Source of the DNA: an uncultured Gammaproteobacteria bacterium
Lineage (GTDB): Bacteria; Patescibacteriota; Patescibacteriia; UBA9934
Assembly (NCBI GenBank): GCA_964452565.1
Contig: CAYVLY010000001.1
Coordinates: 224,351 to 288,350, forward strand
Direction: 5' to 3'
Length of the DNA: 64,000 nucleotides
Both the position numbers and the translations under genes were made by a program. The notes under the pieces were generated by a model. The model did no database searches and was not told the origin of the DNA. It saw only the letters and a program-made list of their open reading frames with translations. Positions 7,287 to 48,057 of the stretch are shown one piece after another; position 1 is the first letter of the stretch, and every line of letters begins with the position of its first letter.

Positions 7287-7320
7287 AAAAACGCTCTGCT
7301 TTCGCAGTGCGTTTTTTTAC
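7287..7320. terminator. intrinsic terminator hairpin (AAAAACGCTCTGC-TTTC-GCAGTGCGTTTTTTT) downstream of the ECF sigma gene on the minus strand
   Basis: Inverted repeat flanked by A/T runs on both sides. Confidence 0.5.
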
Positions 7321-7342
7321 CATTTTTATTACATTTCGTCAA

Positions 7343-13880: not shown

Positions 13881-14436
13881 CTTGACACATTTTCACCCAA
13901 ATGCTTTAATATCTTCACGTCCATTTTGGCTAAGAGGAGTCCCAGCGAGTGCCGCGTCACCAGGAGGTACGCGCCGCGCGTCGGAAAGCTGCAATCCTGC
14001 AGTAGTCGACACTGGCCTTTGAAGCCAGCAGCAACCAAAGCTCAAGGGATCGAGATAGCGACCGAGCCTCTTCTCAGCCAGGCTGCGGGGTAAAAGCAAA
14101 CAAGCTGATACCACCACAAACCCGGAGAGTCCTGGTTCCCAGGACGCAGACTACGGAGGACGGTGAGTCCCAACATGCGCGGTCTGACCGGTTCCTCGTC
14201 ACGTTCACCCCCATGGGTCCCTGTTCGTGGAGAAGTCGTGTGCGGTGAGGAAATTCGCATCTTCACCACCCCGCAGCCATCCTTTTCTCGTAAATCCTTC
14301 GTGGCATCTTCCCTGCCATCGCCAGCCTCCTCGCCTGAGGTCGACGCCACGTGGGTACAGAGCCACCTTTGCCTCGCACTGGTGGCTCTCTACTTTTTGG
14401 CGCTAAACAGCTAGCGTCTATTTTTTATAAAAAGAT

Positions 14437-16007: not shown

Positions 16008-16460
16008 GGTGTTCTCCTTGGAGGGTCGAGTGTTTCAATCTGGCTAGATTACTATCTATTCAGGTTGAAGCACTCGACTACCTATAAAGAAAACCGCCTG
16101 AGTTTCTCGAAAATTGAGAGAACCAGGCGGTTTCCTACCACTCAGTAGATCCTTCGACTCGGCCTTTGGCCTCGCTCAGGATGACGAGTGATTTGCTTCT
16201 TTACCCAGAAGCTTGGGCTCTCTCTAGTTGTAATGTTCTGATCAAATCTGCCTTGCGACTCCTTGATCTTTACATGTAGTACTATAGCACAAAATGACAA
16301 GTTTGTCAAGAGCTGAGGCTGGATTTTGGGCTAAAATTGGCATATATTCTATAGGTAGTAGTAAGTAGGTAGTAGGCAGTAGATGGGCAGCCAATACATA
16401 CCCGGACTTATCTACTTATTACTTCCTACTACCCACTACCTGCGCTATAATAAGGCCACT

Positions 16461-28585: not shown

Positions 28586-29155
28586 CTACCTGACTTCGTC
28601 CTCACGCTCGATTACAACCTTGGCTCTCTTACGAGCTCGGAATATGCGGTTCATCACCGTACCCAGGGGAAGTCCAAGCATTTCTGCAATCTCACGACAT
28701 TTGAGTTCATCATAAGAATACATACATAGAACCTGCCAATATATCGGGTTGTGATGGCTCATTTCTCGCTTCACCTGATGTAGGAGCTGCTGACTACGAG
28801 TTGCCCTTTCCTGGTCTGGGCTCTCATCCTCGAGCTGCCCAACAGCTTCAGCGCTAGTGCATTTATCCCAACGCACATTACGTCGATAGATATCAATGGC
28901 AATCCTTTGAGCAATAGTGCGAGCCCAGGGGCCGAACGGGCGTCTGGGATCATAGCTGCCAATACCCATCAGTATCTTGAGACATGTGACCTGCGCTACA
29001 TCTTGTGCGGATGGTGGATCACCAAGAATCTTCATGGCAATCTTGAACGCAAACGGCCAGGTGATGGTCAATACACGCTCCATGGCCTCTTTATCACCAG
29101 CCTTCGCCCTTGCGGCCAACTCCCTACTGACGAGCATTCCATTCCCCACGCGCAC
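28586..29155 (-). CDS. ECF-type RNA polymerase sigma factor (GC-rich island)
   Basis: Region 2 (DVAQVTCLKIL ... FGPWARTIAQRIAIDIYRR) and region 4 (YDELKCREIAEMLGLPLGTVMNRIFRARKR). Confidence 0.8.
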   Translation of the reverse strand: MRVGNGMLVSRELAARAKAGDKEAMERVLTITWPFAFKIAMKILGDPPSAQDVAQVTCLKILMGIGSYDPRRPFGPWARTIAQRIAIDIYRRNVRWDKCTSAEAVGQLEDESPDQERATRSQQLLHQVKREMSHHNPIYWQVLCMYSYDELKCREIAEMLGLPLGTVMNRIFRARKRAKVVIEREDEVR

Positions 29156-29313: not shown

Positions 29314-29961
29314 CTACCTCAGATCCCTCAGGATCTGCTGCAGCCGCTTGCGGGCGTAGAAGAGCCGACTCATGACATCGCCCTCAGGGATATCCATGGC
29401 CTGGGCGATCTCCTTGTACGAGAACCCTTCGATCTCGCGCAGCAGGACCACTTGACGCTGCTGAGGACTGAGCTGCTGCAGGGCCTGTGCAATTCTGCGC
29501 ATGAGCTCAGCTCGTTGCTGATCTCGCCCCGGACTGCGGTGCAGATGATCAGGGTCCAGGAGTGAATCATCAACTCCGTCACTACCGATACGCTCATCGA
29601 ATTCGCTGGTCTTGACCCGGCTGTGCTTGCGGATGTAGTCGATAGTGACGTTCGAGGCGATCCGGTAAAGCCAGGTGTTGAATGAAGCCTCGAGCCTGAA
29701 TCCGCTGATGTTGCAATAGGCCTTTGCGAAGGTCTCCTGGACCAGATCACGAGCATCCTCGCGGTTGCGAATCATGCCATAGATGTGAGCGTAGATCCGA
29801 CCCTGGAAGCGATCAACCAGAACACGAAATAGCTCTAGCTCACCGCCTTGAATCCGCTCGACCAGCTGTCTGTCACCCAGTTCATCATATTGCTGCATCA
29901 GCTGCCTGCGCAGGCCTGCACACTCTCCTAGCACCTCGTCAGTGGATTCTTCGTCTTTCAT
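29314..29961 (-). CDS. ECF-type RNA polymerase sigma factor, GC-rich paralog of the sigma at 7343-8218
   Basis: Aligns along its length with the 7343 sigma (GRIYAHIxGMI ... SFxTWxYRIA ... SEFDERI ... LSPQQRQVxxLREIxG ... YKEIAxxMDIPEGxVMSRLxYARxRL). Start at ATG 29961 has a GAGGAGAG RBS. Confidence 0.8.
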   Translation of the reverse strand: MKDEESTDEVLGECAGLRRQLMQQYDELGDRQLVERIQGGELELFRVLVDRFQGRIYAHIYGMIRNREDARDLVQETFAKAYCNISGFRLEASFNTWLYRIASNVTIDYIRKHSRVKTSEFDERIGSDGVDDSLLDPDHLHRSPGRDQQRAELMRRIAQALQQLSPQQRQVVLLREIEGFSYKEIAQAMDIPEGDVMSRLFYARKRLQQILRDLR

Positions 29962-30050
29962 GTGCTCTCCTCTCGAGCCTCGGGTTGTACAATGGGACAC
30001 CCCAGATTAGCACAGAAAGGTGGGATTGTCAATGATACGATCAGATCCGA

Positions 30051-45412: not shown

Positions 45413-45787
45413 CTACTCAAACCACTTCCATTGTGGTCGCATAAATAGGTACGTAATCAACAACCCAAGGAATCCAAATATTGCTGTCCAAAGCGATACC
45501 CCTGCAACCAGGTTAAGGATAAACGCTAGAACTGTTGTTCCGATTAATGCCTGGAATGCCCACATCTTCCACTGCCAGATGAAGATCAATAACACGAAAT
45601 TAGCCACACCGATAAGACCCATGATAAACATGATCCATCCTGGCATGACTAGGTATGCTGATGACAATAAAGATCCTAGGTTTGCAAGCGCTGCCCATGC
45701 TGCTCCGATCATCATCAGAACGAGCCAAATACTAAGTCCAACATTGCGCTTCTTTGCCTTTGGACTTGGTTTAATATTTTCTACCAT
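45413..45787 (-). CDS. hypothetical small membrane protein (4 TM)
   Basis: 124-aa ORF with hydrophobic helices. Confidence 0.45.
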   Translation of the reverse strand: MVENIKPSPKAKKRNVGLSIWLVLMMIGAAWAALANLGSLLSSAYLVMPGWIMFIMGLIGVANFVLLIFIWQWKMWAFQALIGTTVLAFILNLVAGVSLWTAIFGFLGLLITYLFMRPQWKWFE

Positions 45788-45861: not shown

Positions 45862-45890
45862 TTGACGCGATCTTTTTTCCGTGTTACAAA
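45862..45890 (+). promoter_or_regulatory. sigma-70-like promoter TTGACG-N17-TACAAA for the tandem small-protein family
   Basis: Same architecture as the promoter at 57541-57569. Confidence 0.45.
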
Positions 45891-45924
45891 GATTGCCACA
45901 CTTCAGTGGAACGGAGAAATCTCA

Positions 45925-46257
45925 ATGCTCTCTGACAATCTCATGCTCGCGCGTATGCAGCGACACGGACTCGCTGGCAGAATCCCACACGAAACCAAAG
46001 GCACAATCCAAGCGCTCGTCGCGCTTCGTCGTCCCCCTGGCCTACACCGTCTGCGCACTACTGCAAGACGTACGATCAAACTCTTCACCCTGGGTCGCAT
46101 GGGCCACAGGGACGACGGGCGCTACGGCCGAGTCTACGCTGCCAAGCGCAACTGCATTCGAGCCAAGATCCCGTCCGGGGTCATCGAGGGCGTCTTCCCA
46201 GAGGGCCCGAGCTGCTCAGAGATCGCCTGGCAGGAGATCTTCGTAGGCCTTTGGTAG
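45925..46257 (+). CDS. hypothetical small protein, family member A (motifs ALVALRRPP ... VFPEGPS)
   Basis: GGAGAAATCTCA-ATG RBS. Shares motifs with the two downstream paralogs. Confidence 0.45.
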   Translation: MLSDNLMLARMQRHGLAGRIPHETKGTIQALVALRRPPGLHRLRTTARRTIKLFTLGRMGHRDDGRYGRVYAAKRNCIRAKIPSGVIEGVFPEGPSCSEIAWQEIFVGLW

Positions 46258-46309
46258 AGGTCACAGAACACCTTCAAGCCTTCAACCGGCAACCCGGGAA
46301 AGGAGAACG

Positions 46310-46759
46310 ATGGACTACAGAAAACACCATATGCAAGATCGGCACCACGTAGTGCCACCAAGCCAGATGCTGCGGCGTGCACATCGTCTGCTCGCGCATA
46401 GCGATGAACAAAACGCCGTACTCGTAGCAGACAGAAACCTACGCGCCCTGGTCAAGATGAGACGTCCGCGCAAAGGACACTGGCTGAGCGACAGAGTCAC
46501 GATCCTGTGCGAAGGCCTCGGCCTGGAGGATCCTGACGAAACGCGGGGGGAGGAGATCGGGGCGCTCAAGCTCGCCTGCCAAGAAGCTGGTATGGCACCC
46601 TGGGCCATCAACCACGTCTTCCCGGAATGTCCGATGGATGTCGATGAGCCGATAGAAGAGCCCGACGCCAGGCGCATCGGCCCAATCGAGCGCCTCCGCC
46701 TCGCCAAGCTGCGTTTCTGGATGGCAGTCGACAATAGCTTCGGCCCCACCACCTCATGA
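46310..46759 (+). CDS. hypothetical small protein, family member B (ALVKMRRPR ... VFPECP)
   Basis: AAAGGAGAACG-ATG RBS. Followed by the hairpin ACGACCACCCTTCTCGGGTGGTCGC. Confidence 0.45.
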   Translation: MDYRKHHMQDRHHVVPPSQMLRRAHRLLAHSDEQNAVLVADRNLRALVKMRRPRKGHWLSDRVTILCEGLGLEDPDETRGEEIGALKLACQEAGMAPWAINHVFPECPMDVDEPIEEPDARRIGPIERLRLAKLRFWMAVDNSFGPTTS

Positions 46760-46776
46760 TCGCACCACGTTTCCTC

Positions 46777-46801
46777 ACGACCACCCTTCTCGGGTGGTCG
46801 C
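46777..46801 (+). terminator. hairpin ACGACCACCCTTCTCGGGTGGTCGC; identical 25-nt copy at 47391-47415
   Basis: Exact duplicate after members B and C of the tandem family. Confidence 0.55.
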
Positions 46802-46879
46802 CATACTTCAAGGTTGACTGGGCCCGACTTTCGTGCTATAACTTTCAACCACCCTAGTAGATCAATCAAGGAGGCCCTC

Positions 46880-47359
46880 TTGGTCACCCTCTACAAATTC
46901 ATGCCCCAGGTGGAATTCGCAACCCCAATGCACCAGCGCATCTATGACTGCTGGAACGATGGGCGCATTCCACAGACACAGCAGGCAGCGAAGGCCATAG
47001 GCGCACTCTACAGGTTGCGCCGAACCACGCGCCTGCGCTGTGTACGCGACTGGATCACAGAATGGATCGATACCGCCTTCGAGCAGAGCCCCAACGAAGC
47101 GCTGATGGCCCGACGCAACGCAGTCAGAGATGCCAAGGCAGCATGTGCCAAGGCCGGTATCCCGCTCGAGGTCATCGACTGCATCTTCCCAGAAGGCCCA
47201 AGCGCCCTGAATGCGAAGAGCTACGGAAGGCAGGTGGACATCGAGCCTGAGCAGCAGACTAGGCAGGCTGCCGAAGAACCGCGCCGCAGTATCTTCCAGC
47301 GATTCCACCTCTGGCGCGAACGCCAGCGCCACGCTACGCACATGGATGGCACCCGCTGA
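46880..47359 (+). CDS. hypothetical small protein, family member C (ALYRLRRTT ... IFPEGPS)
   Basis: AGGAGG 5 nt upstream of the TTG at 46880. Shares motifs with A and B. Confidence 0.4.
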   Translation: MVTLYKFMPQVEFATPMHQRIYDCWNDGRIPQTQQAAKAIGALYRLRRTTRLRCVRDWITEWIDTAFEQSPNEALMARRNAVRDAKAACAKAGIPLEVIDCIFPEGPSALNAKSYGRQVDIEPEQQTRQAAEEPRRSIFQRFHLWRERQRHATHMDGTR

Positions 47360-47527
47360 CCTTGTCCTGACCCTCGAGTCAAGGACAGCTACGACCACCC
47401 TTCTCGGGTGGTCGCTTGCTTTCTAACCAATGGTTTACAGTCTATAATAAATGTGATAGCTTCTAAGGCCCCTTCAACCCCCAACGAGCCCAATCGTAGA
47501 TCCGTCGATGGGCTTGGAGAACATAAA

Positions 47528-47923
47528 ATGAGCATGTTCGAAGAATGCCTCAAAAACACCTACTTCAACGTATCAGCGCTGATCGTAACCTTCTTCGTAA
47601 CCCGTATCATCCCCGCAAGCGACCCCTCTGGCTTCATGAGCAGCTCCATGAACACAAAGGGAATGTACTTGATTATGTACATTGGGGTCATCATCATGGT
47701 CGCAGCCGCATTCAACAAGGAAAAATCGAGACTCACATACGCATGCGCTGGAGTGGGTCTAGGACTCTGCTTCCCAATTGTGGGTAACATGCTATTCAGT
47801 GGCATGTTCATCGCCTTGCTGGCCAACGCAGCCATCGTGGTCATCATGATCGTGGCAGCAAACATCGTGGAATACAAGATGGACGAGATAGCCTACATCG
47901 AGCGTCCAGACGACTTCTACTAG
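47528..47923 (+). CDS. hypothetical small membrane protein
   Basis: ATG at 47528 (MSMFEECL), 3-4 TM helices, terminator GCGCCCCGCACTTGGGGCGC + T-run after the stop. Confidence 0.45.
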   Translation: MSMFEECLKNTYFNVSALIVTFFVTRIIPASDPSGFMSSSMNTKGMYLIMYIGVIIMVAAAFNKEKSRLTYACAGVGLGLCFPIVGNMLFSGMFIALLANAAIVVIMIVAANIVEYKMDEIAYIERPDDFY

Positions 47924-47973
47924 CCCTCGCTACTCCGCAACCGTCGCGCCCCGCACTTGGGGCGCTTGTGCTT

Positions 47974-48004
47974 TTATCCATAGCGAGGTCCAACCTCCAG
48001 GAGG
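47974..48004. other. 31-bp perfect inverted repeat CGAGGTCCAACCTCC-A-GGAGGTTGGACCTCG upstream of era
   Basis: 15-bp perfect arms with a 1-nt spacer. Confidence 0.5.
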
Positions 48005-48057
48005 TTGGACCTCGGAACAAAACTTCTGTATCCTGCCTACTGTATACTATTACCACT

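Follow-up and report, generated by a model that had tools for sequence, protein, structure and literature searches.

We describe three tandem plus-strand genes, A, B and C, in a 64,000-nucleotide stretch (the window) of contig CAYVLY010000001.1, assembly GCA_964452565.1. Their products share an FPExP motif and make up a formally new family, to which no known family or fold can be assigned; newness is meant in that sense, and no new mechanism is claimed. On the evidence below we place middling confidence in the following reading: A, B and C are anciently diverged, vertically inherited, fast-evolving small helical proteins that remain inside the cell, are produced from autonomous cassettes and may bind nucleic acid.

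Three genes share a conserved core

The genes and their ribosome-binding sites are as follows (aa, amino acids; pI, isoelectric point; nt, nucleotides).

45925-46257, plus strand: member A, 110 aa, pI 11.3; the minimal form of the family, belonging to the A-like subfamily with the GHRDD motif
45913-45916, plus strand: Shine-Dalgarno sequence GGAG of gene A, 8 nt 5' of the ATG at 45925
46310-46759, plus strand: member B, 149 aa, pI 6.7; the most divergent copy (FPECPM)
46301-46305, plus strand: Shine-Dalgarno sequence AGGAG of gene B, read from the sequence
46880-47359, plus strand: member C, 159 aa, pI 9.5; belonging to the C-like subfamily, with the C-terminal helix RFxLWRERQ
46868-46874, plus strand: Shine-Dalgarno sequence AAGGAGG of gene C, 5 nt 5' of the TTG start at 46880

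The three open reading frames (ORFs) had been proposed in an initial annotation, and all are present where it placed them. The same genes (110, 149 and 159 aa) are called in an independent Logan assembly of the same organism, and member B also occurs in an NCBI record, on a contig of 709,517 bp. Aligned homologs with the N-terminus MYTxLxxM back the TTG start of C. The ORFs have a GC content of 0.60-0.62 and lie in an island of 0.57-0.63 that gives way at sharp boundaries to about 0.42 in the surrounding genes. Their codon positions follow the pattern of coding DNA, with GC highest at the third position (GC3, 0.70-0.74), then the first (GC1, 0.61-0.69), then the second (GC2, 0.43-0.50). Together with ratios of nonsynonymous to synonymous divergence (dN/dS) of 0.25-0.48 against orthologs, this pattern bears out the coding signal.

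An alignment of A, B and C made with MAFFT contains 16 invariant columns, including L..(L/M)RR in mid-protein and FPE.P near the C-terminus. The two motif blocks of the initial annotation thus survive proper alignment, with corrected spellings. The first reads ALVALRR in A, ALVKMRR in B and ALYRLRR in C; FPEGPS is exact in A and C only, B having FPECPM; and A carries RAKIP where AG(I/M)P had been given. In a six-frame motif scan of the window, FPE[GC]P was restricted to the A, B and C ORFs. Over the wider family described below, the invariant core is R-x7-K-x2-C-x2-A-x10-F-P-E-x-P.

Long minus-strand ORFs (46315-46887 and 46862-47398) overlap genes B and C, and in one dataset a minus-strand ORF is called over the homologous region. 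Both would be expected if A, B and C were not genes, and arose by chance in GC-rich non-coding or structured-RNA DNA. That explanation is effectively refuted: amino-acid motifs are kept despite saturated synonymous divergence, codon-position GC is that of coding DNA, each ORF has a Shine-Dalgarno site at the right distance, AlphaFold2 models are confident, and an Rfam scan of the island DNA gave no match. The two long minus-strand frames are shadow ORFs of the kind that GC-rich coding DNA usually produces.

The family occupies one site in a few related genomes

We compared an HMMER profile of the family exhaustively with 1.84 billion representative proteins. Twelve of these reached E<=1e-3, namely the three query genes and nine relatives with E-values from 8e-20 to 3e-8. 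Two other kinds of search were less sensitive. Word-indexed protein searches with 3- and 12-sequence alignments recovered only the query genes and two known relatives, the index being too coarse for this family. A related-locus search of genome contigs returned nothing, a false negative, since contigs L002 and L003 in that collection carry relatives.

A further search used a degenerate codon pattern, written by hand to capture the core, R-x7-K-x2-C-x2-A-x6-[IV]-x2-[IVLFM]-F-P-E-x-P. In the window, where 0 matches are expected, it picks out A, B and C. In the JGI metagenome collection it found seven loci, six of them true members, all on contigs of 43-48% GC; two of these six are identical to loci already assigned to Uhrbacteria metagenome-assembled genomes (MAGs). 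A scan of 2.9 million viral contigs with the same pattern gave no match.

The flanking gene era (48058-48927) points to the host. Its product, the GTPase Era, is 89% identical to that of the Candidatus Uhrbacteria MAG L002 and 83% identical to those of three further Uhrbacteria or Patescibacteria MAGs. Judged by sequence, the family's host is a Candidatus Uhrbacteria bacterium of the candidate phyla radiation (CPR), and the family appears confined to a handful of closely related genomes of that group. From the Era relatives and the member record on the 709,517-bp contig we take the host to have a small genome.

Where enough flanking DNA is available, the gene order is SpoU-type methylase, GC-rich orphan, TrmA-like tRNA methyltransferase, 124-aa membrane protein, the family, Na+/H+ exchanger, GC-rich membrane protein, Era. 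The 124-aa membrane-protein gene (45413-45787 in the window) is on the opposite strand to the family and is absent in L003. The family therefore has one fixed site, 3' of the TrmA-like gene (and of the divergent membrane-protein gene where present) and upstream of era. Copy number at this site varies: three in the window, two each in L002 and L009 (C-like, then A-like) and one in L003. A-like members share GHRDD, and C-like members share the MYTxLxxM N-terminus, PSEKIExRR and the C-terminal RFxLWRERQ helix. Orthologs of A are P0011 (L002) and P0009 (L009), and those of C are found in L002, L009 and L014. A third group, consisting of P0008, P0010 and the L003 member, is nearer to B.

The paralogs are old and evolve fast

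The initial annotation described the array as diversifying paralogs from a recent tandem duplication. The paralogs are indeed diverging, being 25-34% identical within the window, but recency is rejected. Their synonymous divergence (dS) is saturated at 0.9-1.4 and A-like and C-like orthologs occur in other Uhrbacteria; the duplications therefore predate the divergence of the species. The identical hairpins that follow B and C, which had been taken as a sign of recency, are better read as conservation or conversion, the same stem being kept after family genes in other species.

Orthologous pairs across the family are 38-55% identical, with dN of 0.41-0.65 and dN/dS of 0.25-0.48. Member A is 40-45% identical to its orthologs P0011 and P0009 (dN/dS about 0.3), and member C is 38-45% identical to its orthologs in L002, L009 and L014 (dN/dS 0.27-0.48). 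Core genes compared with the same genomes are far closer: Era is 83-95% identical, the TrmA-like protein 73-83% and the neighbouring membrane protein 66-69%. With dN/dS below 1 throughout, these comparisons show a family that changes several times as fast as the genes beside it, yet under purifying selection.

Members are small helical proteins that may bind nucleic acid

The members found are soluble proteins of 94 to 198 aa, with pI 5.7-11.3 and an arginine content of 8.5-16.7%; the pI lies between 9 and 11.3 in seven of 12 distinct members. Signal peptides and transmembrane segments are absent from the family proteins. AlphaFold2, run with the 12-sequence family alignment, gave an all-alpha model of member C with a mean predicted local distance difference test score (pLDDT) of 77, above 90 in the two conserved blocks, and a predicted template modelling score (pTM) of 0.59. 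The model of member A has six helices (pLDDT 76, pTM 0.66). We also considered whether the N- and C-terminal helix-turn-helix units arose by internal duplication, which was rejected (hhalign score 9.5, P 0.13).

Database comparisons agree with the initial annotation that no known family is recognisable. Pfam, PHROGs, NCBIfam and PADLOC, run on all members, returned nothing significant, and comparison with PDB sequences assigned no family; nor did the family consensus match Pfam. Two sub-threshold matches involve member C alone, to DUF4760 (E 0.015) and to a PHROGs tail-fibre-assembly family (E 0.0026).

We suggest that the family proteins act inside the cell as small accessory or regulatory factors that bind nucleic acid, whether RNA, the ribosome or DNA, because their core is basic and helix-turn-helix-like, arginine and lysine residues are invariant, export signals are absent and there is a marginal resemblance to ribosomal protein bS21. 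Among the closest known systems we also list small helix-turn-helix DNA-binding regulators (TrpR-like proteins, DnaA domain IV, the DeoR N-terminal domain).

Several results weigh against this proposal. Some members are neutral or acidic (B at pI 6.7, P0012 at pI 5.7). No helix-turn-helix or RNA-binding Pfam model is matched by the members or the consensus, and Foldseek returned nothing with E<1. The link to bS21 is itself marginal and limited to gammaproteobacterial bS21, with a weaker hhalign score against a broader set: neither any member nor the family consensus matches PF01165 at E<=10, NCBIfam gives no match at E<=1, and a broad bS21 hidden Markov model does not recover the family.

A marginal resemblance to ribosomal protein bS21

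The bS21 signal is nonetheless the one lead to a known protein. When the family profile, built from 12 or 15 sequences, was compared with PDB sequences, bS21 was every top hit (E 0.054-0.06, about 16 bits), and the top 8-12 hits, at E 0.054-0.28, were all bS21. The match is ungapped, with V-R-a-a-K-a-a-C-l-K-A-G-i-a-a-E-V-i-d-k-i-F-P-E-g-P-s of the family aligned to residues 15-41 of E. coli bS21. We compared profiles with hhalign against two sets: a first one of gammaproteobacterial bS21 sequences only, more than 80% identical, and a broader one that adds Firmicutes-type and Bacteroidota-type sequences and phage bS21 from phage-collection records. The score was 27.5 (P 2.5e-4) against the first and 22.1 (P 3e-3, probability 10%) against the second, each above all 100 column-permuted controls (maxima 19.8 and 15.4).

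These results raise the possibility that the paralogs derive from bS21. The C-terminal half would be a divergent bS21 module on an N-terminal helical extension. Bound to the 30S platform close to the anti-Shine-Dalgarno region, the proteins would serve as variable, specialised ribosome accessories in a lineage in which canonical bS21 often goes undetected. We regard this as doubtful. In its favour, the residues K, C, KAG, EV and F-E-P-[ST] fall in register with E. coli bS21 residues 15-41, with an hhalign P of 2.5e-4 and a score above every permuted control, and the predicted elements come in the same order: helix, AG turn, short helix, F-x-E-x-P-[ST] turn, helix. Among about 1,900 six-frame ORFs from the window and the related loci, the best matches to E. 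coli bS21 are family members, weak as they are (E 0.4-0.6). A further point is position: era, which encodes a GTPase that acts on the 3' end of 16S rRNA, is downstream of the locus.

Other features fit a ribosomal protein poorly. The basic residues of helix 2 (RRRE) are replaced by the hydrophobic and acidic VIDxI, and a K/R-rich tail is missing; family tails are short and hydrophobic in A and of mixed charge in B and C. One to three copies, fast evolution and presence in few species are likewise unlike a ribosomal protein. Side by side, both kinds of protein are small and helical, and A-x-R-x2-K-x2-C-x-K-A-G-[IV]-x2-E-V-x4-F-x-E-x-P-[ST] gives a local match in register, marginal as a sign of the conserved bS21 core ALRRFKR-x-C/V-x-K-x-G...E-x-R-x-R-x2-[FY]-x-K-P-[ST]. 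In contrast to bS21, which is about 55-90 aa long and strongly basic, the family is two to three times longer and has a conserved N-terminal helical domain, and its predicted fold is a globular bundle without the basic RNA-contacting residues and K/R tail. It is also fast-evolving, confined to a narrow clade and without a significant Pfam or NCBIfam match.

Paralogous bS21 copies are known in other organisms. Phage-encoded copies are known as well (PMC9723584). According to a preprint, S21 is frequently missing in Parcubacteria and CPR S21 tends to be enlarged (bioRxiv 10.1101/2022.01.07.475337). The last report is compatible with a bS21 origin of the family and is not evidence for it. If the link were true, the family would be a natural case of duplicated, diversifying ribosome-accessory proteins in ultra-small bacteria that often lack a detectable bS21.

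An immunity module and recent foreign DNA are improbable readings of the locus

Tandem paralogs that evolve fast and vary in number from one to three, an atypical base composition, an autonomous promoter and terminator, and an IS256-family insertion beside the family gene in one lineage could all be accommodated by a diversifying immunity, effector or anti-phage accessory module, the function suggested by the initial annotation. The first of these features are not specific to such modules, and the suggestion is not borne out. There is no match in PADLOC (0 families for 12 members), Pfam, NCBIfam or PHROGs, none to a toxin or immunity protein and none in a motif scan of viral contigs, and the proteins have neither a signal peptide nor a transmembrane segment. 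No toxin, secretion, nuclease or ATPase partner stands nearby; the neighbours are housekeeping genes, and five assemblies show SpoU, the TrmA-like protein, the small membrane protein, the Na+/H+ exchanger and Era. The position is stably inherited across species and not mobile, with dN/dS below 1 throughout. We consider an immunity or effector role improbable.

The base composition could alternatively mark foreign DNA of recent arrival: a horizontally transferred island, or a prophage-style 'moron' cluster whose donor was GC-rich. The island's GC of 0.60 against 0.42, its sharp boundaries and its promoter-gene-terminator units, which resemble phage morons, are what such an origin would leave behind. 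We find it very improbable nevertheless. The island is old, since species with an Era 83-89% identical to that of the window have orthologs at the same position, GC-rich as well. Among the 1.84e9 representatives no homolog lies outside these Uhrbacteria, and the motif scan of viral contigs yielded 0 matches. The window has no integrase, tRNA junction or direct repeats at the island's borders, and it holds about nine islands of this kind, spread among its core genes. Like phage morons, the family units have their own promoter, a hairpin terminator and deviant base composition; unlike them, they stand between chromosomal housekeeping genes at positions fixed across species, outside any prophage, with no PHROGs match at E<=1e-3 (the best, 0.0026, being for member C only) and 0 matching viral contigs. 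Conserved positions and the lack of an outside homolog disfavour recent horizontal transfer.

Two predicted promoters and transcription units

The DNA in front of the genes supports the idea of autonomous cassettes.

45862-45890, plus strand: promoter of the A-B unit; -35 TTGACG, 14 nt, extended -10 TGT TACAAA, with 17 nt between the hexamers
46814-46842, plus strand: promoter of gene C; -35 TTGACT, 14 nt, extended -10 TGC TATAAC, an exact match to TTGAC-N15-TGnTAnAA
45817-45822, minus strand: inferred -10 (TATACT on the minus strand) of a divergent promoter for the 124-aa membrane-protein gene at 45413-45787; the TAGTAT block is invariant in four species

The intergenic region 5' of the first family gene is conserved better than the coding sequence. 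The -35 TTGAC and the extended -10 TGnTAnAAA, at 17-nt spacing, are invariant in the window, L002, L009 and L014. The TTGACG-N17-TACAAA promoter named in the initial annotation is thus real as a sequence element and conserved in four species, but it does not drive the whole family as had been assumed: there are two predicted promoters, one shared by A and B and one of C's own. In L002 and L009 the second family gene, too, has such a promoter, and a variant with TGGACA precedes the single gene of L003. Both window promoters fit the sigma-70 type with an extended -10, and transcription starts are predicted about 7 nt downstream of their -10 elements. A consensus promoter scan missed them, the last base of the -10 hexamer being A or C and not T.

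The 52-nt spacer between A and B has no promoter motif match and no hairpin, and we therefore read B as probably co-transcribed with A, which gives two predicted transcription units, A-B and C. Each unit would be a self-contained cassette of a -35 and extended -10 promoter, Shine-Dalgarno site, ORF and GC-rich hairpin.

A hairpin conserved behind the family genes

Two exact copies of the 25-nt sequence ACGACCACCCTTCTCGGGTGGTCGC, where 0 are expected, stand in the window and fold into the following hairpins.

46777-46801, plus strand: hairpin 1, after B; a 9-bp GC-rich stem with a 5-nt loop, -18 kcal/mol, z about -4.5, followed by CCAUACUU, with no U-tract
47391-47415, plus strand: hairpin 2, after C; identical to hairpin 1, -21.8 kcal/mol, z -6.0, followed by UUGCUUUCU, a U-rich tail

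Hairpin z-scores overall ranged from -4.4 to -6.0. A terminator scan called hairpin 2 terminator-like and did not call hairpin 1. Hairpin 2 is the predicted intrinsic terminator of gene C. Hairpin 1, because no U-tract follows its stem, would be at best a weak terminator that may allow read-through into C.

The same stem, GACC(A/G)CCC...GGG(T/C)GGTC (GACCACCC/GGGTGGTC), follows family genes in other species. It is split by an insertion sequence in L003, shows a compensatory change from A-U to G-C in L009 and has a G-U pair in L014, while the L026 hairpin is nearly identical to that of the window, loop included. Related ACCGCC(C)U stems stand behind other family copies, and orthologous hairpins end in the lineage-typical tail UUGUGCUUU. 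Among nine hairpins from six genomes, 92.6% of cells are paired and four pairs have changed on both sides; slid controls are only 25-54% paired. In the window, the 3' ends of B and C are about 60% identical, with indels, around a perfectly identical hairpin, which indicates that selection or gene conversion is probably acting on the hairpin itself. The conserved 3' hairpin of the family mRNAs would primarily be a terminator and might double as a recognition element.

The insertion in L003 is an IS256-family element (L003 5713-6875) lying in the terminator hairpin of the single family gene there. It is AT-rich (0.35 GC), encodes a transposase that matches PF00872 (Mutator family) and has 20-bp inverted repeats, TACCGTTAAATTTTGGGTGC, flanked by a duplication of about 11 bp, CACCCGGGTGG. 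Its upstream junction is also read in L023, L024, L027 and L028.

More widely, intrinsic terminators of the lineage share the tail (C)TTGTGCTTT after GC stems of varying, compensating sequence, as at 47946-47974 in the window, about 9940-9975 in L002, about 8560-8595 in L003 and 8017-8048 in L009. A separate structure, a perfect 15-bp inverted repeat (CGAGGTCCAACCTCC / GGAGGTTGGACCTCG, 47984-48014), lies 44 nt 5' of the era start and contains CCTCC/GGAGG. It is not kept in L002 or L003; L004 and L005 have a different CCTCC/GGAGG hairpin in the same place.

GC-rich cassettes recur across the window

The GC-rich island noted in the initial annotation is present, but it is not singular. About nine such islands (0.52-0.63 GC, with GC3 up to 0.85) stand between AT-rich core genes of about 0.42 GC in the window, at the following positions in kb.

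4.5-7.5: GC-rich island
13.5-16.5: GC-rich island
21.8-22.3: GC-rich island
28-30.5: GC-rich island
43.1-43.7: GC-rich island
45.9-47.9: GC-rich island, holding the FPExP family
49-50.6: GC-rich island
51.7-52.6: GC-rich island
56.9-58.1: GC-rich island

Compared with positional orthologs, which are GC-rich too, the GC-rich genes are 27-45% identical, against 56-95% for AT-rich core genes. Pfam matches among the scanned GC-rich ORFs were limited to two tandem ECF (extracytoplasmic function) sigma factors and a histidine-phosphatase-like protein.

The promoter type is shared as well. The motif TTGAC-N15-TGnTAnAA has eight matches in the window with at most one mismatch, against 1.5 expected.

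7315-7342, minus strand: motif match
13882-13909, plus strand: motif match
16282-16309, minus strand: motif match
45862-45889, plus strand: motif match, in the A-B promoter
46814-46841, plus strand: motif match, in the promoter of gene C
49503-49530, plus strand: motif match
56923-56950, plus strand: motif match
57541-57568, plus strand: motif match

For seven of the eight, a GC-rich ORF follows at a distance of 15-76 nt, and the GC-rich genes resemble autonomous cassettes served by strong promoters. Exact matches precede DNA of at least 0.52 GC in five cases out of five, while just 19% of 300-nt windows reach 0.50. On these sequence data the lineage carries a class of GC-rich, fast-evolving, mostly orphan genes at fixed positions, most of them behind a near-consensus promoter, and the FPExP family is one tandemly expanded example of this cassette class.

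Small unannotated orphans are common in Patescibacteria genomes. The FPExP genes are like other ORFan families of the CPR in being small, unannotated and without homologs beyond a narrow clade. They differ in composition, being GC-rich relative to the core where such families are usually AT-rich, and in their conserved positions and near-consensus promoters. If the family were only an orphan, it would be one more uncharacterised CPR family, useful mainly as a marker of a small Uhrbacteria clade; to us the window-wide cassette class is more notable than the family itself. Should this two-class architecture prove general, it would run against the rule that young or accessory genes are AT-rich, and would raise testable questions of how lineage-specific genes arise in the CPR, of biased gene conversion and of selection on mRNA structure. 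A more speculative idea, to which we give little credence, joins the two themes: a genome-wide set of GC-rich cassettes kept by a Uhrbacteria clade, in which the FPExP family is a duplicated and diversified bS21-derived module supplying interchangeable ribosome- or RNA-binding accessories, with the 3' hairpin perhaps a recognition or feedback element.

Several neighbouring features deserve mention. In relatives, the stretch from the family to era includes a minus-strand Na+/H+ exchanger gene (PF00999; L002 7877-9262, L003 6992-8452, L009 8575-9960). It is absent from the window, where another gene fills the interval.

47528-47923, plus strand: gene for a 131-aa predicted membrane protein, GC3 0.71, in the same GC-rich island as the family and not a member of it, with its own terminator at 47946-47965

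The genes for the paired ECF-type sigma factors (Sigma70_r2 plus r4_2) are on the minus strand at 28586-29155 and 29314-30000 and belong to the GC-rich class; no anti-sigma gene was identified next to them. The sole tRNA in the window, tRNA-Ser(TGA) at 51666-51742, edges the GC-rich island at 51700-52600, which carries two orphan ORFs.

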